IMG/VR virus record: IMGVR_UViG_3300042731_002921
Span: 1-64,000 of that record
Length of the DNA: 64,000 nucleotides
Strand: one strand, 5' to 3'
From: a virus
Taxonomy: Duplodnaviria; Caudoviricetes
The position numbers were made by a program, and so were the translations under genes. Positions 1 to 54,871 of the stretch are shown piece after piece. The notes under the pieces are model-generated. The model saw only the letters and a program-made list of their open reading frames with translations. It did not search any database and was not told where the DNA came from. The stretch's first letter is position 1. Each line of letters opens with the position of its first letter.

Positions 1-298
1 TGAAGCTGCTCTTGCTATGCAAAGAGAAGATATTATTGCTGATTTAGAAGAAGCTTATGGTAGTGAAGCTAAGAGTATTATAGCATTACAAGAAGAACTT
101 TGGGCTTTACAAGATGCTAACGCTATTCTATCAGCAGAAAGAGAATTAGAAATTCAAATACTTGAAGCTCAAGGTAACACTGAAGCTGCTCTTGCTATGC
201 AAAGAGAAGATATTATTGCTGATTTAGAAGAAGCTTATGGTAGTGAAGCTGATAGCATTATAGCATTACAAGAAGAACTTTGGGCTTTACAAGATGCT
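1..298 (+). repeat. 180-bp-period tandem repeat inside the tape-measure ORF
   Basis: Positions 1-118 recur almost identically at 181-298 (AMQREDIIADLEEAYGSEA...LWALQDA). Confidence 0.95.
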
Positions 299-1498
299 AC
301 TGAAGCATTAGAAGAAGCCGAAGCAGAAAGAGAATCCGCAGCCCAAAATTACCTATCAGCATTAGAAGATGAATTAGCAATACTTGAAGGTAATTTAGAT
401 GATGCTAAAGGTGTATATTTAGATTTACTTAATGATGAATTAAATGCACAAGAAGAACTTGCATCTTCTTTAGAATCAGCAATAGAGAATATACAAGATT
501 TTAGAAAAGAATTAGAATTTAACTATGACTTAGAGGAACCTTTAGATATTCAAGCAAGTTTATTAAAAGAACAAACTGAGATTATTGAAGGTATACTAAG
601 TGGTGATGTTGATTCTGTTTCAGATTTAATTTCTATTTCTAAAGATTATTTAGATGTTACTAAAGGTCTAAGTAAATCTGAAACAGATTATGCAATTGAA
701 GTAGCTAAAACTAATATTAAAATGTCAAATGTTGAAGATTCTTTAAGCGATCAATTAACAGAAGCTGAACAACAAATTGAGTTATTTAGCAGTTTAATAG
801 ATGAAGTTAATGGTGTTTCCAATGATATATTGAGTCTCGAAGAAGCTGAAGCTGCTTATCAAGATGCAAAAACAGAGTTAGATAATAACTGGTATACGGA
901 TGAGATTGAGATGCTTAATGATTTACTTTATAGTAATGAGGGACTTGAAGAACTTTTAGCAGATTTTATTACTTGGAATATAGCAGCTATTGAAGCTGGT
1001 GGTGAAGGTGCTGCTGGATTTGAAGAAGAAACATCATATGCACAAAGCCTCGCTGATGCTGCTGAAATTTATTATAATATAGAATTAGGGACTGCTCCTG
1101 GCCTTGATATTTTTGAAGCAATGCAATTAATTGGTGTTCTTAATGCAGATATCTTAAGAGAAGAAATCGGGTATACTGGTGATGTTGAGGAATTAAAAGA
1201 AAGATTTGGTTTTGCTACTGGTGGTAGCTTTGAAGTACAAGGTGAATCAGGTAGAGATGCATTAGCATTGCCAGGGTTAAGAGTAACTGCTGGTGAAATT
1301 GTTAATATCTCAAGACCTGATACTATGGATAGTTTATCATCAGCAATAAATTATTTATTAGAAGAATTAAAAAATCTTCGATCTGATCAGAGAGCGCAGG
1401 CTCTTGCTATTGTTAGGTTGCTACAGGATATAGATGACAACACTGATTATTTAGAATTATGGGATGAGATAGGTATGCCCCAGGAGCAAACTGCATGA
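17..1498 (+). CDS. C-terminal part of probable tail tape-measure protein (begins upstream of the window)
   Basis: Ala/Glu/Leu-rich helical sequence with 60-aa repeats; C-terminal GFATGG motif common in tape measures; stop overlaps the ATG of the next tail gene. Confidence 0.6.
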   Translation: MQREDIIADLEEAYGSEAKSIIALQEELWALQDANAILSAERELEIQILEAQGNTEAALAMQREDIIADLEEAYGSEADSIIALQEELWALQDATEALEEAEAERESAAQNYLSALEDELAILEGNLDDAKGVYLDLLNDELNAQEELASSLESAIENIQDFRKELEFNYDLEEPLDIQASLLKEQTEIIEGILSGDVDSVSDLISISKDYLDVTKGLSKSETDYAIEVAKTNIKMSNVEDSLSDQLTEAEQQIELFSSLIDEVNGVSNDILSLEEAEAAYQDAKTELDNNWYTDEIEMLNDLLYSNEGLEELLADFITWNIAAIEAGGEGAAGFEEETSYAQSLADAAEIYYNIELGTAPGLDIFEAMQLIGVLNADILREEIGYTGDVEELKERFGFATGGSFEVQGESGRDALALPGLRVTAGEIVNISRPDTMDSLSSAINYLLEELKNLRSDQRAQALAIVRLLQDIDDNTDYLELWDEIGMPQEQTA

Positions 1499-46985: not shown

Positions 46986-47650
46986 AACGCACCTCTTTCT
47001 ACATGTTTCCATGCTTTATTATTCTTTATGTTTGAAATTATATTATCACCTACACCAAATCTCTTAGCAATTTCTGTTTGTTTTAATTTCTTCTCTGAAA
47101 GCAATCTGAGAATTTCAATAACATCATCCTCATTCAACTTACTGTTGGTTACTTTTGAGCCTTTTTGTCCGCGACCTTTATTTATTATATCATCTATATT
47201 ATCTTGTTGAGTTCCTTTAAATAAATGTTCTGGATTAACACAAGACGGGTTATCACACGTATGACACACAATATCTTCATCTGAGAGAGTATTATCTTTA
47301 TAAGAAAAATAAGAAAATCTATGTGTCAACCAATGTTTATTATATTTTGAATGATTTATTTGCCAATGACCATAACCACTTGTGAGTTTATGTGCATTCC
47401 AATTCCAACACTCAAATGGAGATTTCATTTCAAAATGTTTTTCAAAGTTATCAACAGGGTCTTTTGGTTTATTAGAACATCCACATGTTTTTCTTTTTCC
47501 TAAAACTAAATCTGAAGCATTTGCAAAAGAATATCCTCCACAAGAACATTTACACATCCACTTTGTATGACAATTTTCTTTAGTATCAAGTGGATATAAA
47601 GCTTTTAATTTTCCAAATTGTTTATTTTCAATTGTTTTATATTTATTCAT
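46982..47650 (-). CDS. HNH homing endonuclease between nrdD and nrdG
   Basis: CWNW...GYG...THRFSY...VCHTCDNPSCVNPEHL..GT..DN; N-terminal C.CSCG and C-terminal HTH. Confidence 0.9.
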   Translation of the reverse strand: MNKYKTIENKQFGKLKALYPLDTKENCHTKWMCKCSCGGYSFANASDLVLGKRKTCGCSNKPKDPVDNFEKHFEMKSPFECWNWNAHKLTSGYGHWQINHSKYNKHWLTHRFSYFSYKDNTLSDEDIVCHTCDNPSCVNPEHLFKGTQQDNIDDIINKGRGQKGSKVTNSKLNEDDVIEILRLLSEKKLKQTEIAKRFGVGDNIISNIKNNKAWKHVERGAF

Positions 47651-50600
47651 TACCAACACCTTTATAAAATTGTCTGTGAGGGAAATCTAATGTACGTCTT
47701 ACTTCGTTCCAGTTAGCGACATTTGTGCAGAATCCTACAGTTCGGGTTATGTACCTGTCAACGTTACAACCACAAATTGGACAAACTTCAGCATCAATAA
47801 ATACATGATTATTCTTACACCTCTTCATTACATAATTTACACTCCAATAAACAACTCCACATTTAGCAGCATAATTCATAAGATCAACCATCGTCTGTTT
47901 ATTTTTAATTTCTTCTCCTATATTTATATGGCAGACACAGCCTCCACTGAATTTATTATCAAATTTACCTTGTAAACGTATTCTTTCGAGCATATTCGCT
48001 GTTGTTGTTAATGGAATAAACTGATTACTATAAAGATGATATTTATCTTGATATTTAAGGGTTCTATCCCTTTGTGCTAATTTCACAGCAGAAGATTCAC
48101 TTGGTGTTTGCTCACAAGAATGAGGACTTTTGAATCTCTTTGCCATTTTATCATTTTCTTCATTAATAATATCTAAAAGTTTAATAACAAAATCTTCACC
48201 GTTTTCAGAAGTGATATCATATCCAAGAATTTCAAGAGCTTCATTTAAACCATTCACACCATAAGTACTATATTGTTTTGATAAATCCATATGACCAAGT
48301 GTATATAATGGCATTGCATTGAGTTCAATTCTTTTTTTAATAATATTTCTTTTACAATTATTGATTTTTGCTACTGTTCTCACGGATTCTTTTAGAAGCT
48401 CAATGAATTTTTCATCCTTATTATTATCTTTCAATGCAATATAAGCAAGTCTTGGGAAATTCTGAGTTACTACACCAATACTCCCGATCTTTGTACTTCC
48501 TGCACCAAAACTATTAAAATATTCATTTTCCTTGTCTGATCTCAATCGGCAACATCCTGAAATTACTGAACTTTTTCCATAAAACATATTAATAAAACCA
48601 AATTTCATATTTTGTTCTGCGATATACCCAAGGAAATTTTCATCTTTAATCTTACCATCCTCTACTGTAAAACAGGCAGTAACAATAGGAAATGTCAATT
48701 CAGACCTTTCAAGTTCCTCATTCATCGCTTCGATAAAAAGCTTCTGTACTTTTTTAATCGTATCAATCTTAGGAGATTTCCCATCTGCAAAAATATAATC
48801 CCCTACAAGTTCTTCAAGAAAATAATCATCATATATAGAGACATTGGTGAATGGACTTTGGTTCCCTCTGAATTCCCAATTAAGAGTGTAAATAAAACTT
48901 CTTAGCTTTTCAGAAACATATGTCCAAACCCTCTCTTTCTCGCCATTGAACTCATACCAAATATTAATTTTACCATCATCCCCACATTTTTCATCAGAGC
49001 AATCAAAAATTCTATCTACATAATAACTCGCAACAATAAGTACATCTGCAATACCAGTAGCTCCAAGAGTAGAGTTAGCGCAATATACGATGAACTGTTC
49101 CATTTGTCTGATAAAACTATCAAGACTCTTTGGAGGCTTTACGGTCATTCTTCTGGACATAGTAAGCCCCTCAAGGGCAACATCGTAAGTGCTATAGTTA
49201 AAGCAATTATGGCAATAAACACCGTTGCTTGAAAATCTACCAGTTTCTGTAGTTATGTCATAAACCCATTCACCTTTCCATGGCATTTTTTCAATTTTAT
49301 GAATACCACCGCCTTCAAATCTACCATCAATTTTTCTATTTTTGAAAACGACATCTTTATGTTTATTTGCTTTTACACAATAGTTGCAAAATTCTTCATT
49401 ATTACAGACGAAGGATACCCTGTACATCTGAAGCTTAGATTTAAAAGATTTCTCGGAATGTTGTTTACCTACCAAAGAAGTTCTTATTCTGTTGAAACCA
49501 AGTCTTTCACATAGTGCAGCTACTTGTTGAATTAATGCAAAAGATGTGACTCTAATGTCAATCACACCTGTTAGTTTATTAATTGTTCCATCAGTATCAA
49601 CTATCCCAGCTAATAGAGCTAAAGAAGAATCCTCATCTAAATTGTTACTAAATGTAGGTAGATGTTTATTTTTTGCACCAACACCAATCATATCTGACCA
49701 GTGTGTTTTAGTAAATGGGCCATTAGAAAGACATAGTGTCTTACCACCATTCACAGTTGTATCAAAGTATTTATTAAACTTACTGTAGAAGTGTGACTCT
49801 GCTACATTCTTTTGTGTAAAGCCAATCTGTCTGCCTGTATGGCCATCACCAATCATAGCACCAACTAAATAGGCTAATTCTGGAGTCATATAATCACAAT
49901 CAATAAAAGTATTCTTAGCTTTACGTGCTGTTAAAACAGCAATATCATCTTTTGAAAGGTTCTTTGCTTCTAATCCGTCTTCATAATCTTCTGTTATAAA
50001 CGGGTGGTCTTCAGTGACAGAAAGAATAGACCCTGATTTAGTTTCTATGTTTAAAAGATCAGTATGACTCCTGTGTCTAAGCACTCTTGACATTGGAACG
50101 AAATTCTTACCATCAAAAACTTTAATACCTTGACTAAATAAGTTGATCTCCTCCATATCATCTTTAATATCTACCAAATGAGAATATTTATTAAACAATT
50201 CTTCCATTGTAATCTCACCATTTTCATCAGTCAGAATACTTGTTTGTGGGTGATATGAATATGGACGTGCTACATCAGAAAAATCATTTATGTAAATTTC
50301 ACCAGATATCTGTTTTTCAATAATCTGATTCGCCTCTAAAAGACCATAAGATGTCCTAAGTTGCTTCCAAAGTAAATAATGCGAATTATATTTCTGCAAT
50401 GGTTTTTGAAACTCAAAATTATAATCAATAACACTTCGTCCGCTTATATTACTATTATCATCAACACTAACATCAGCAGTTGTTGTATTATTATTAAAAA
50501 AATCCTTAGAAAACTTATTCAAATCAAGCTGATCACCTATACCATTTTCCGTGAAAACTCTTCTTCCGTATTTAGCCCACAAGTGCATCATCAGAGTGTT

Positions 50601-50657
50601 AAAATCTTCATCCCAACCAATTTTGATATACATTCCATTCTCCTTTAAATTAACCAC
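47643..50657 (-). CDS. nrdD: Class III anaerobic ribonucleotide reductase large subunit (intein-containing)
   Basis: RPY|CF, NQSPFTN, GCCRL, GSIGVVT.N, Zn-finger CPICG and glycyl-radical motif RTVGF. Confidence 0.95.
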   Translation of the reverse strand: MVNLKENGMYIKIGWDEDFNTLMMHLWAKYGRRVFTENGIGDQLDLNKFSKDFFNNNTTTADVSVDDNSNISGRSVIDYNFEFQKPLQKYNSHYLLWKQLRTSYGLLEANQIIEKQISGEIYINDFSDVARPYSYHPQTSILTDENGEITMEELFNKYSHLVDIKDDMEEINLFSQGIKVFDGKNFVPMSRVLRHRSHTDLLNIETKSGSILSVTEDHPFITEDYEDGLEAKNLSKDDIAVLTARKAKNTFIDCDYMTPELAYLVGAMIGDGHTGRQIGFTQKNVAESHFYSKFNKYFDTTVNGGKTLCLSNGPFTKTHWSDMIGVGAKNKHLPTFSNNLDEDSSLALLAGIVDTDGTINKLTGVIDIRVTSFALIQQVAALCERLGFNRIRTSLVGKQHSEKSFKSKLQMYRVSFVCNNEEFCNYCVKANKHKDVVFKNRKIDGRFEGGGIHKIEKMPWKGEWVYDITTETGRFSSNGVYCHNCFNYSTYDVALEGLTMSRRMTVKPPKSLDSFIRQMEQFIVYCANSTLGATGIADVLIVASYYVDRIFDCSDEKCGDDGKINIWYEFNGEKERVWTYVSEKLRSFIYTLNWEFRGNQSPFTNVSIYDDYFLEELVGDYIFADGKSPKIDTIKKVQKLFIEAMNEELERSELTFPIVTACFTVEDGKIKDENFLGYIAEQNMKFGFINMFYGKSSVISGCCRLRSDKENEYFNSFGAGSTKIGSIGVVTQNFPRLAYIALKDNNKDEKFIELLKESVRTVAKINNCKRNIIKKRIELNAMPLYTLGHMDLSKQYSTYGVNGLNEALEILGYDITSENGEDFVIKLLDIINEENDKMAKRFKSPHSCEQTPSESSAVKLAQRDRTLKYQDKYHLYSNQFIPLTTTANMLERIRLQGKFDNKFSGGCVCHINIGEEIKNKQTMVDLMNYAAKCGVVYWSVNYVMKRCKNNHVFIDAEVCPICGCNVDRYITRTVGFCTNVANWNEVRRTLDFPHRQFYKGVGNE
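49206..50258 (-). mobile_element. Intein (351 aa) with LAGLIDADG endonuclease in nrdD
   Basis: Starts SYHPQT, block B VTEDHPF, LVGAMIGDG and LAGIVDTDG motifs, ends VYDITT...CHN before Cys. Confidence 0.92.
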
Positions 50658-51465
50658 TGAAAGAAAATCCTTGCAAGATCATTACAAGGACTCTATTCAT
50701 AATTTATATTAATTAAAATATTTACACTACAAAATCTCTATACTATTTCTTATACCGTTTGTACAGATCTCTATACTGTTGCTTATACCGTTTGTACATA
50801 TCTTCTGTACAACTCCAATCAGCTACAGCAAAATCAAGTTCTTTAATAAAATATTTTATATCTTTGTGTGTACAATCACTTAAAAGTTTATCAATTAATT
50901 TTTTCTTTGTCAATTGTTTTTTATTATCAGTTTTTTCTTTATCATTAAGTTTCTTAATCTCATTCTTCCACAACTTCATATACGAAATATAATTTCTAAA
51001 ATTATAATCAAAACAATCATCAAGGGATTCAAGCTCTTCATTCTCACACCCAACCTTCTCTGTTGAATCCATCCATGATTTATAATACTCAGCCATTTCT
51101 TTATAATATTTAATCATCTTTGCATTCCTTTTCATATATTTCATGTTGTCTTTTATATCATTCGTACATTTTTTCCGTGAATCCCAATATTGGAATGAGC
51201 TATCTATGTCTTTTATTAACCTTATAGTTTGATTTTGGCTTAGTTATCTTACAATATCAAATACAAGATCATCTACGTCATAAACTGTATTGAGTTCAAT
51301 TCTCATACAAACTACTACCTTTATACTCCTCATCTAAAAAATAAATCTCACCTCTCCAAGACGATTCTTTACAGTATCTAATAGCTTCCTCCTTAGAATT
51401 AAATTCTTTAAATTCATAATCAGTAACAGTATGGTAATCGTTGTCGAAAATACATATCTTAAACT

Positions 51466-52548
51466 TCATACAAACATCTCCTTATAATAAGAATATTTCT
51501 TCATAATTTCATCTTTAAAACCACAAGAAAATTTACCCTCCTTGCATAGCCCGTTTCTATATACACAATTCGGTACAAGCATCTTAGCTAAAAGATGATT
51601 CTTCTTCTCTATCTCTTTCTTAATCAAATTCATAATATAAACTGTTTCTTTATGTGAACATAAGCATAATCTCTTTCTTGCGATATTAATAAGAGCTTCT
51701 GCGTTTACAAACATAGTGTGATTGACCGGCGTTAATCTGTGAGGAATATTTTCAACTATATCTGGAAAATTTACGTAGGCATACTCCCCGAAGTATTCTA
51801 AAGCTGCTTTATCATAAGCAATTGCCGCATCTTCTGGTGTAGAAAATACCCCTAAAAAAACAGAATGATCCCCTACATATATACTTGAGTTGTAGCTGTC
51901 ACCTTTTCTTCTAACACCTTTATAAGCAACCTCTTTCCCAACCTCCTGTATTGAATTCATAGCATTTAGTTGCTTAGTACTTGCTCTTAAATTTTCGATT
52001 TTGTCATTCAATGTATTTCTATCGATATGATCCACAATTGGTGGTTTATACCCGTTCAACATCACAAAAACAATAACACTTCTGTACATCTTTTCATTTT
52101 TATATGTAATTACCCAACGGTTTAGACTTTTATTTAAGCCCCCAGATTTGTCACCAATTGAAGCATTTTTTGAATTTGCATGTATTTTCCAATATAATTC
52201 TCCGTCTTTATACTCAAAGATTTCATTTAGTGCTTTTTGCGTGAAACCTTTGTAAGTTAAAGAACTACCAGAATTAATTTCTTTATTAATTCTGTCATCT
52301 CTACTTGTCAAAACAAAATGTTCTACACCTATTTTATGACGTACCATATGAACAGAAACAAAACTTGGTATGTTTTTCATTTCTATACAATACTCATCCT
52401 GCCTCAGAGGACTATGCTCCATCAAATAAGAATTTAAATCAGAAACATTAGAATTAAACCTAACAGTACTATCGAACGCTTTCTTTTTCCAGTGTCTTGA
52501 TTTAGTCTCAGTAACTATAATCTCATAATTATTTCTATCTGCTTTCAA
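51466..52548 (-). CDS. thyX: ThyX-like (flavin-dependent thymidylate synthase) protein with an in-frame HNH-AP2 insertion
   Basis: HSPLR...HMVRHK...SRDDR N-half and H.M.VNA.AL..IARKRLC C-half, separated by about 182 aa of HNH-AP2. Confidence 0.75.
   Translation of the reverse strand: MKADRNNYEIIVTETKSRHWKKKAFDSTVRFNSNVSDLNSYLMEHSPLRQDEYCIEMKNIPSFVSVHMVRHKIGVEHFVLTSRDDRINKEINSGSSLTYKGFTQKALNEIFEYKDGELYWKIHANSKNASIGDKSGGLNKSLNRWVITYKNEKMYRSVIVFVMLNGYKPPIVDHIDRNTLNDKIENLRASTKQLNAMNSIQEVGKEVAYKGVRRKGDSYNSSIYVGDHSVFLGVFSTPEDAAIAYDKAALEYFGEYAYVNFPDIVENIPHRLTPVNHTMFVNAEALINIARKRLCLCSHKETVYIMNLIKKEIEKKNHLLAKMLVPNCVYRNGLCKEGKFSCGFKDEIMKKYSYYKEMFV
51745..52290 (-). mobile_element. In-frame HNH-AP2 homing endonuclease domain with no intein motifs (boundaries approximate)
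   Basis: IFEYKDGELYW...VDHIDRNTLNDKIENLR...YKGV...FLG.FSTPEDAA.AYD.AA..YFGEYA..NFP. Confidence 0.85.
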
Positions 52549-53074
52549 TTTTTCTCCTTTGTAATCTCTACTTTTTCATAGCAAATATCATTAACACAAT
52601 AGCTCTCTTTATTAACTTCAAACAAGTTTAGTCTATCATAAATACCCTTCAGTAGCAACAATTCATAATATTTTTCTTTGTTGTATCTCAATAAATAATT
52701 AAGATGTTCTTCTAAATCTTTGTATTCTTTATACTCCATTAAATAACCTCCGAAGAACACGCGGGACATAAGCACCACTCCATACCGTATTCTTTAACTA
52801 TAAATGGATCATTTCCATACCAACCACAGCCAAAGCACTGGTAGTAATCATCCTCGTACTCATCTTCAAAGTCAACTCTTTCTCTGTTCTCGTAAATATC
52901 CTCTTCCTTACTCATGATTGTGATCTCCATACGACGGCTTGTTATAACTGCCACATCTAGTAATTAGTTTAGCAGGGTTTATTAATTCAATTACAATTCT
53001 TTCTGCAATTTCTTCTTTTGTCTCTTGAAACGTTAAACCACAAGTCCCTTTGTACGTTACTGTTTCACTCATAA

Positions 53075-54871
53075 TTATTCTCCGTAATATTTTTCTTGGT
53101 ATTTAATCCAACTTGATGTTTTATAAATTATTGGATACTTCATCTTAACAAACTTCCAAATTGGCATATTCTCATATCTTCTACAAAGATAATCAAGTGA
53201 AATTTCTATTAAACTGTAATTCCCATCATGGACTTCATTCAATAAGAAAATACCTCTAAATTCATTATTCCCTTGTGGACCTCTATAAATCTCATCCTCA
53301 ATATAAAAAGAGCCACAAACAAGACCCCTGATTACTTTACCATTATTCAGGGATTTAACACCTACTTCATAAGTTTGCTGATGTCCGGCGCAAAAGGAAA
53401 AACCAATCTTATTGAGTCTATTTGTTATTGTACCACCAACAGGGTTACCGCTTAGAGGTAATGTAAAATAATGACTATAAGAAACACCATCAATCTCTAC
53501 AATCTTAAGGAAGTTATGAACATTCCAACCAAAATCTTTGTATTTAAGATCATCAGGACTCATAAGGCCATCAAGTTTAGGATCATTCTCTATTGCTTTA
53601 TTTATTCTACAGTTACCAGAAAAAATTGTTTTATAATTTCTTCTTGTTAGTAATGTCTCATTATCTACAGAGGCACACCACACAATACCGTCATAGTCAA
53701 GTTCTTTTGTTAAAAAATCTTTGGTTCTCGTTTTACACTTTTTGGTAATGTTAACTCTCCAATGACCTTTCCGGTACTCTTTTAATGTTGCTCTAATACC
53801 GTGTAATACACAGGCAATTTGCATATCTTCACAAATTGTCTTTTGTCCATAAAATACTCTACTTTCTGTCATTCTCGTAGGTAAAGTCCCATCACAAAAA
53901 ATCATTACGTCAAGAAATAAATTAAACTGCCTTTTGCTTAATTCAAAAACCCATTCCGGCAATCTTTTATTATTATCAACGCACCATTCTGGTCTTGTCA
54001 TAAAGAATTCATAAGATTTCTGTGGTTTGTTTTTAAGCTTTTTACCACAGACGTGTGTGATACTCCGCTCTCTTGAACTTTCTCTATACTCAACTTCAGA
54101 ATTCTCAATAATTGCTTTAATAGTGTCCTTACCTGATTCAGATTGGTAAAATACTAAACTATTATACTTACCATGATACGAATCAGTTAGTGCAACAGCA
54201 TTGAACTGGATTTGTTCATCAGTTAGTGGATACTCATTTATAATTTCAATCTCGGCTGTATTGTAAATATCACTACAAGTTGAACAATCTTTAGCGAAAG
54301 ATTCTTTTATATTTCCACCAGAAGTTTCCCAAAAGACATTATGTTTTGGAGTTACACATATAGAAACAGTTGACGTTTCATATTCTAAAAGTTTTCCTTT
54401 GTACTCTCTTTTAATGATATTTTTTACTTTTTGCCATTCACCTATTTTCCTTTCTTTGTTGAAAGTATAAACAATTTCTCCGATATTAATTTCTTCAAAT
54501 AGCTTCCAACCATCTTTTGTTAAAACTTCTGTTTTGTCATCATAACATTCATGATTTCCAATTACCAAATGCATCTCAGGTCTATACATCTTATGTTTGT
54601 TTTGTCTTTGTCTTTCATTGTAATCCAGCAATGGCTTACAAAGAATACCCATAGCGTTATGAGCAGAATCAATATCTTTCTTGTATCTTCTCCCTTCAAA
54701 TTGAATTTTACCAAAATCATATTGTGATAGGGAACTCATATCAGCAAAATCACCAAGTTGAACAATTACTTCAGGTCTTTTTTCAACAATGTATTCACCG
54801 CACCAAGCAAGCATATCAGTAGGTGATTCAGGTTTAATTTGTGTATCAGGTACTACAAGATGTCTTCTCAA
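53075..54871 (-). CDS. Phage metallophosphoesterase (intein-containing)
   Basis: VPDTQ, LGDFAD, GNHE, SHY and GHQ motifs. Confidence 0.85.
   Translation of the reverse strand: MRRHLVVPDTQIKPESPTDMLAWCGEYIVEKRPEVIVQLGDFADMSSLSQYDFGKIQFEGRRYKKDIDSAHNAMGILCKPLLDYNERQRQNKHKMYRPEMHLVIGNHECYDDKTEVLTKDGWKLFEEINIGEIVYTFNKERKIGEWQKVKNIIKREYKGKLLEYETSTVSICVTPKHNVFWETSGGNIKESFAKDCSTCSDIYNTAEIEIINEYPLTDEQIQFNAVALTDSYHGKYNSLVFYQSESGKDTIKAIIENSEVEYRESSRERSITHVCGKKLKNKPQKSYEFFMTRPEWCVDNNKRLPEWVFELSKRQFNLFLDVMIFCDGTLPTRMTESRVFYGQKTICEDMQIACVLHGIRATLKEYRKGHWRVNITKKCKTRTKDFLTKELDYDGIVWCASVDNETLLTRRNYKTIFSGNCRINKAIENDPKLDGLMSPDDLKYKDFGWNVHNFLKIVEIDGVSYSHYFTLPLSGNPVGGTITNRLNKIGFSFCAGHQQTYEVGVKSLNNGKVIRGLVCGSFYIEDEIYRGPQGNNEFRGIFLLNEVHDGNYSLIEISLDYLCRRYENMPIWKFVKMKYPIIYKTSSWIKYQEKYYGE
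53612..54547 (-). mobile_element. Intein (312 aa) inserted immediately after the GNHE motif
   Basis: CYDDKTEVLTKDGW start, VTPKHNV block B, degenerate LAGLIDADG motifs, VWC...FSGN|C end. Confidence 0.92.

Follow-up and report, generated by a model that had tools for sequence, protein, structure and literature searches.

How can a phage gene for a putative thymidylate synthase carry a complete homing endonuclease in its reading frame, with neither intein nor intron? The question is raised by a ThyX-like gene on the minus strand of IMG/VR record IMGVR_UViG_3300042731_002921 (Duplodnaviria; Caudoviricetes), of which positions 1 to 64,000 were analysed (64,000 nt, hereafter the window); the source record is a complete viral genome of 84,387 bp with terminal repeats. 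An earlier note, made from the letters of the window, had described a single open reading frame (ORF) of 360 amino acids (aa) that reads as a ThyX-like N-half, an HNH-AP2 nuclease and a ThyX-like C-half without an internal stop, and this architecture is present as claimed. Homing endonuclease genes in coding regions are usually thought to need an intron or intein, or to split the gene. The note had proposed that either a surface loop of the enzyme accommodates the nuclease, with homing free of splicing, or an unrecognised mechanism removes it. Our comparative data support the former, because ten chimeric genes stay in frame despite insertions and deletions (indels), their conserved residues are kept, their junctions vary, no splicing signature was found and they lie patchily among uninterrupted ("empty") alleles. 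We consider it probable that the element is a splicing-free, in-frame HNH-AP2 homing endonuclease which sits in an insertion-tolerant surface loop and is made only within the host enzyme. The locus, whose protein is called P0001 here, comprises the following parts:

51466..52548, minus strand: whole chimeric ORF P0001, 360 aa, TTG start, no internal stops
52554..52559, minus strand: Shine-Dalgarno-like AAGGAG, 5 nt 5' of the TTG start
52291..52548, minus strand: host N-half, aa 1-86, ThyX-fold, with motifs EHSPxR and RHKxGVEHFVxxxRxDR
52237..52290, minus strand: N-linker, aa 87-104, with motif (G)SSxTYKGxT, of which G101 and T103 are invariant in 10/10 chimeras
51940..52236, minus strand: HNH_3 nuclease module, aa ~105-203, VDHID...ND.IENLR...QLN
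51766..51939, minus strand: AP2 DNA-binding domain, aa ~204-261, weak Pfam AP2 match and structural match
51739..51765, minus strand: C-linker, aa 262-270, length and sequence variable between chimeras
51466..51738, minus strand: host C-half, aa 271-360, with RxxPVNH, NAxALINxxRKRLC and four conserved Cys in a cluster
52269..52294, minus strand: 10-bp inverted repeat without mismatch at the 5' junction, probably incidental
51659..51717, minus strand: 57/59 nt shared with a second, low-depth contig from the same sample

The TTG start is backed by N-terminal homology to P0002, L018 and P0008. Pfam HNH_3 matches aa 156-197 of P0001 (E 8e-10), while Thy1 (PF02511) reaches 23.2 bits, below its gathering cut-off of 24.8. 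The Thy1 match is split in two, aa 33-77 corresponding to profile positions 36-82 and about aa 275-315 to positions 147-187; AP2 was found at aa 209-254, weakly and below cut-off. An AF2 model of P0001 was built from an input alignment of 16 sequences and has a mean predicted local distance difference test (pLDDT) score of 78.6, with low values at aa 82-94, 191-203 and 255-268. When this model was compared with the PDB by Foldseek, the best matches were all ThyX (prob 1.0), and VIA aligned it to a solved ThyX with Z 13.1 and a root mean square deviation of 2.8 Å over 140 residues (model 7..328). Since the match spans both halves of P0001, these are predicted to contribute to one ThyX fold. Model residues 203-267 match plant AP2 domains (VIA Z 8.0-8.6).

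Where exactly does the insert begin and end? Alignment to the uninterrupted homologues L018, L003/P0008, BS-TP1 gp15 and FA67 ORF49, as the earlier note had proposed, places it at aa 87-270/271, i.e. ~185 aa (~555 nt), with R-D-D-R before and R-L-T-P-V-N-H after it. Uninterrupted relatives of 184-201 aa have a loop of 7-9 residues at this point, and aa 87-270 replace a 7-residue loop that reads GGDDDVD in P0008 and HGDPDAD in L018. The empty homologues include gp15 of Bacteroides phage BS-TP1 (237 aa, Thy1 27.8 bits), ORF49 of Clostridium phage FA67 (184 aa) and P0008 (201 aa, on a 33-kb viral contig). Closest to P0001 are L018 and L017, both of 184 aa and with 78% identity in the best-matching segment. 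DNA homology between the window and L018 covers window positions 52561-52292 and 51723-51472, and between these blocks L018 has 37 nt versus 568 nt in the window. The neighbourhood of L018 is similar as well, with an upstream phosphoesterase gene and a homologue of a small CxxC ORF (window 52739-52954); downstream it has NrdD and apparently the NrdD activase. A metagenome scan with P0001 returned HNH relatives only and no close allele. The free-standing HNH-AP2 proteins of Whisky and EaPF7 align to P0001 at aa ~105-261 only (36-41% identity), and the linkers are therefore ~18 aa (N) and ~10 aa (C), short as the earlier note had stated but slightly longer than its estimates of ~45 nt and ~20 nt. 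The element would sit in a variable loop right after RHK...S-x-R-x-D-R, where canonical Thy1 has ~60 extra positions; the two ThyX halves would still fold together, and the nuclease would hang on flexible linkers.

P0001 does not stand alone. Database searches yielded nine more chimeras (P0002-P0007, P0070, P0132 and P0181), which are 335-373 aa long and share 39-62% identity with P0001. HNH-AP2 occupies the identical site in 10/10 and all ORFs are open. Among the six chimeras with DNA, both linkers carry independent whole-codon indels of 1-5 codons, and the frame is kept. With Pfam at E<=1, HNH_3 was found in 10/10, Thy1 in 10/10 (best 6.6e-8) and AP2 in 6/10 (best E 5.9e-7). The earlier note had considered that the ThyX part might have lost its catalytic residues. 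No loss of conserved residues was found: when 16 chimeric and empty sequences are aligned, the invariant positions are H45, S46, P47, R49, H67, R70, H71, G74 and R83 of the N-half and N282, A283, R293, L294, C295, T302, C328, C335 and E337 of the C-half, all of which are kept in the chimeras, and D85, R86, R271, H277 and C342 are invariant in 10/10 chimeras in addition. The nuclease core is invariant in 10/10 too (D173, H174, N186, L187, R188, N195 and N198), as are the AP2 motifs, and its D, H and N residues match those of free-standing homing endonucleases. Based on these invariant residues, host and nuclease parts both look to be under purifying selection, and the host-part branches of the chimeras are not long. 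The N-linker motif (G)SSxTYKGxT is common to the chimeras, whereas it is absent from the free-standing relatives. P0027, P0032 and P0038 were rejected as truncated chimeras, being free-standing HNH-AP2 proteins, and the matches of phrog_99 and Vibrio phage HNL01 that reach the ThyX N-half are only the overhang of longer HNH proteins. One ENA sample, ERZ22666135, holds two different chimeric alleles, P0006 and P0132 (host 71%, insert 83% identical). The locus of P0181 (L100:1-6837) lies near genes for dCMP deaminase, DNA ligase and a dGTP_diPhyd_N-domain protein, which hints at a nucleotide-pool remodelling module.

Could the nuclease be expressed separately? In the window no in-frame start was found before the nuclease at aa 87-113, nor is one conserved among the chimeras. 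The insert brings neither a start nor a stop nor a ribosome-binding site, so presumably the nuclease is produced solely inside the host protein, as one of its domains.

Does the insert move? Chimeras are rare (1/80 best viral loci, 5/150 best representatives) and their distribution is patchy: they are confined to one half of the host tree, where they are scattered, with the empty alleles L018, P0008 and P0069 nested among them. At least four changes are required by the starred branches of a 23-row host tree, gains and losses being indistinguishable in these unrooted trees, and a single clade of chimeras is rejected by the host part (delta log-likelihood 230, approximately unbiased test p-AU 5.6e-10). 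The inserts, in contrast, group together: all ten lie on one side of a branch, with 14 free-standing relatives on the other (65/86). The inserts of the P0005/P0006/P0132 group are 83-87% identical and their hosts 66-71% (87% versus 69% for P0005/P0132); P0001 and P0002 share 51% identity in the insert and 72% in the host. The insert-preferred grouping (P0002,P0003), which was picked after the trees had been seen, is rejected by the host data (p 0.0002). Furthermore, the insert is foreign in base composition in some phages. Its G+C content at third codon positions (GC3) is 38 versus 60, 57 versus 73 and 49 versus 67 in its own host halves in three GC-richer phages, where it lies 17-21 points below the host halves and also below most neighbouring genes; AT-rich phages show no such difference between insert and host. 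Finally, a contig of the source run (255 nt, depth 2.6) reads ...DDGRWTPTVH joined directly to TMFVNAEAL, beyond the 57/59 nt that it shares with the window, and appears to carry an empty allele. A homing cycle that fits the locus would run as follows: during co-infection the fusion protein would cut or nick uninterrupted alleles at the loop-coding sequence, recombinational repair would copy the ~555-nt element into the cut empty alleles, and occupied alleles would be protected, their target being split by the insert. We give an even chance to the fuller picture of a bare in-frame cassette that borrows the transcription, translation and stability of its host enzyme, which would itself be an active homing nuclease, and that has spread from one origin across phages of very different GC.

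Several points weigh against homing of an element tolerated by its host. A single origin of the inserts has no more than moderate support (65/86; 68% of bootstrap trees). In a test that was chosen once the trees had been seen, the host topology was not significantly rejected on the insert data (p-AU 0.089), and host and insert divergences correlate overall (r 0.80), as they would under long vertical co-inheritance with occasional loss. Low insert GC3 could partly be a bias specific to nuclease genes. The contig with the putative empty allele is short and of low depth, and 30 loose letters were read from it. Moreover, the insertion lies beside the presumed equivalent of the canonical ThyX substrate-loop motif, and enzyme activity may be lost.

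The alternative that survives best is a domesticated bifunctional fusion, captured once, of benefit to the phage and inherited mostly vertically with occasional loss; it might degrade DNA of the host or of competitors, or tether a nucleotide enzyme to DNA. Such a fusion would fit the correlation just mentioned and an insert as conserved as its host (mean pairwise identity 47% versus 49%), as well as a nuclease core that is intact in 10/10 with no degenerate copy among them. The inserts are compatible with its one origin, and homing is also compatible with that. However, only ~1-3% of the family representatives are chimeric, with empty alleles nested between the chimeras and a single chimera clade rejected, the GC3 of the insert is foreign in the three GC-richer phages, and the closest relative lacks the insert in a similar neighbourhood. 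Consequently, we regard domestication as unlikely.

What kind of protein is the host? Its family comprises 1622 representative clusters (E<=1e-3) and is found on 372 viral contigs, and almost none of its members is interrupted; the proteins are ~180-200 aa long and bear the automatic ESM Atlas name 'ThyX family'. With canonical ThyX (PF02511; T. maritima and H. pylori structures) the host shares the fold (Z 12-13), and RH(K), S-x-R and the NA...R segment of the C-half can be recognised. In contrast to canonical ThyX, it lacks ~45-60 Thy1 profile positions between the halves, scores at or below the Pfam cut-off and has a C-terminal cluster of four Cys. The family consensus RHKxGVEHFVxSxRxDR, set beside the canonical motif RHRxxSxxxxSxR at the level of motifs, keeps RH and S-x-R, has Lys in place of the third residue, Arg, lacks the first Ser and is one position longer in its spacing. 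Neither a profile of the empty alleles nor P0023 singly matched a ThyX among the PDB sequences, and PHROGs has no family for the empty alleles. The four cysteines (C295, C328, C335 and C342; 51466-51666, minus strand) lie in the conserved pattern RKRLC ... CVYRNGxCxExxxCG, which suggests a metal or iron-sulfur site. Thus the label 'ThyX-like' of the earlier note holds for the fold and for the Thy1 match in two pieces, but the family is divergent and P0001 falls below the Pfam cut-off; the host is best described as a member of a divergent mini ThyX-fold family, a putative rather than proven thymidylate synthase. The 'putative thymidylate synthase' of roseophage DSS3phi2 was rejected as a reference, being unrelated by hhalign and without a PDB match.

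The insertion site directly follows the most conserved motif of the family. Homing endonucleases and inteins typically target the sequences of highly conserved motifs. Between RxDR and NA(Q/E), 72/81 parsed members have a spacing of 17-27 aa; in two others, whose additional segments appear to be helical, it is 46-68 aa, and the chimeras reach 189-195 aa. The uninterrupted BS-TP1 gp15 (L001:2950-3663) and P0176 have an apparently helical expansion of ~45-50 aa exactly at the nuclease loop. Since loop length varies across the family and BS-TP1 gp15 has extra residues here, the insertion site seems to be naturally variable. HNH-like or other domains are fused to the ends of further mini ThyX-fold proteins, at the C-terminus in P0173, P0111, P0074 and P0126 and at the N-terminus in P0112 and P0149; P0173, for example, ends in NHKDGNKYNN...NLEWVTPQEN. 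The mini ThyX-fold gene seems to attract nuclease genes repeatedly.

A further scenario, which we consider improbable and less so only than those below, is that the insertion inactivated the ThyX-like enzyme and the ORF persists as a vehicle for nuclease expression. It would agree with an insert three residues past the S-x-R equivalent, beside the stretch that forms the substrate loop in canonical ThyX. The phage may use the dTMP supply of its host cell, and the complete 84-kb genome contains neither ThyA nor a second Thy1 gene, so that the function may be dispensable. A dead gene would nevertheless hardly keep the residues invariant in the 16-sequence alignment, together with the four Cys, unchanged in ten chimeras at 39-62% identity; the C-half remains open and conserved although the nuclease has no need of it, and host-part branch lengths are not elevated.

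Is the insert removed after all, by a new kind of protein or RNA splicing or by programmed bypass? Inserts of this kind are not without company, since the ShiLan insertion of a phage methylase also lacks an explanation (PMC11855218). The earlier note had seen no intein and no intron in the window, and this was borne out: none of the 10 chimeras has an intein, Hint or LAGLIDADG Pfam family at E<=1, while the same Pfam library finds Intein_splicing and LAGLIDADG_3 in the neighbouring NrdD, 1 kb away, as a positive control. The insert opens with I, R, L or M, no Cys, Ser or Thr is conserved at +1, and neither TxxH nor HN motifs occur in the insert. After the insert R271 is conserved, and the following residues vary, as do the last linker residues. 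Nearly the entire insert is nuclease; a splicing domain needs about 130 aa or more, and the remaining ~18 + ~10 residues are therefore too short for a Hint domain. An Rfam cmscan of 51000-53000 at E<=10 gave no intron and two sRNA matches at chance level. RNA splicing would not require an in-frame 3' junction, and the fact that this junction stays in frame through independent indels counts against it. The 10-bp hairpin at 52269-52294, to which the earlier note had drawn attention, does exist, but it is not conserved and its occurrence is at chance level (one perfect 10-bp hairpin of this kind in 64 kb at 31% GC, compared with a mean of 1.4 in 10 Markov shuffles). It derives from two ATTAAT (Ile-Asn) codon pairs and is missing in the five other chimeras with DNA; a functional role was consequently rejected. 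Taken together, removal by such a mechanism is very unlikely.

Misassembly is unlikely, and an artefact or chimeric contig deserves practically no credence: although the window is metagenomic and the sole listed sequencing run that contains the locus is a DNA run, possibly the source, with no RNA run listed, a Logan contig of 22,285 nt, made by an independent assembler from a run that may be the source sample, spans the locus with zero differences, ~14x even depth and no joint. Moreover, the nine remaining chimeras stem from different samples, and P0002 and P0007 were each assembled identically in at least four (contigs DNA-identical, hence without polymorphism data). Among phage records, blastn gave no match to the locus.

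How does a splicing-free nuclease within an enzyme loop relate to known systems? Judged by its domains, the nuclease is an ordinary phage HNH-AP2 homing endonuclease, and its mode of carriage is unusual. A passage in PMC10448857, which cites Magnani 2004, places free-standing HNH-AP2 (HNH_3 + AP2) homing endonucleases in T4-like, T5-like and ICP1-like phages. These proteins of 164-184 aa consist of the two domains in the order seen here, are 36-41% identical to the insert and share its D-H...N...NLR...N core; unlike the insert, each is encoded by a gene in its own right, located between or next to host genes and equipped with a start, a stop and signals, and the SSxTYKGxT linker motif sets the chimeras apart from them. 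Among published cases, the nearest that we found is a homing insertion called the ShiLan domain, which lies in the DNA methylase of a mycobacteriophage (PMC11855218). It too reads through in frame without a detectable intein or intron, has the disjoint distribution that is typical of homing and is predicted to loop out of the host fold. However, its HNH lies in another frame with unexplained translation and its in-frame product is not a nuclease, whereas here the nuclease is the in-frame product. In phage Aeh1, nrdA is split by the HNH gene mobE (PMC3045599), again an HNH homing endonuclease inside a phage nucleotide-metabolism coding region with no intron or intein. There the host gene is in two separately translated pieces that reassemble, while the frame is continuous here. 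Inteins with a homing endonuclease resemble the insert in being in-frame, selfish and co-translated, beside a conserved active-site motif of a nucleotide-metabolism enzyme, but the insert has no Hint, no splice-junction residues and no room for them, and would presumably be retained in the mature protein. A further parallel is offered by fungal mitochondrial rps3, to which LAGLIDADG genes are fused in frame. Our literature search turned up no published ThyX-like gene with an insert like this one.

The ten lineages suggest a third option beside intron or intein and split gene, namely in-frame insertion into a loop that tolerates a nuclease of 185 residues. With its natural alleles, some occupied and some empty, the family lends itself to a direct test. 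If the reading as a tolerated homing endonuclease is true, searches for mobile nucleases should cover "domain insertions" that are annotated as odd fusion proteins; the locus would also be a naturally evolved large domain insertion beside an enzyme active-site motif, and it may picture how nested nuclease domains arise. In addition, it draws attention to a large viral family of mini ThyX-fold proteins with a conserved four-Cys cluster.

Besides the ThyX-like gene, two neighbours in the window are interrupted or seem to be. NrdD (47643-50657, minus strand, 1004 aa) harbours, at about aa 141-484, a canonical intein that includes a LAGLIDADG domain, and the NrdD of L018 (607 aa) is without it. 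On the other side, a 598-aa ORF (53075-54871, minus strand) is phosphoesterase-like (GDxxD ... GNHE) and has an insert of ~300 aa that starts with Cys right after GNHE and ends in ...SGN followed by Cys; it looks like an intein. Pfam at E<=0.001 gave no match on this ORF, and it was rejected as a clear orthologue of the Metallophos genes of L018/L003 (22-25% identity), so that no intein-free allele is claimed. Together with the insert of the ThyX-like gene, the NrdD intein and the phosphoesterase-like insert amount to three selfish-looking insertions within 7 kb.

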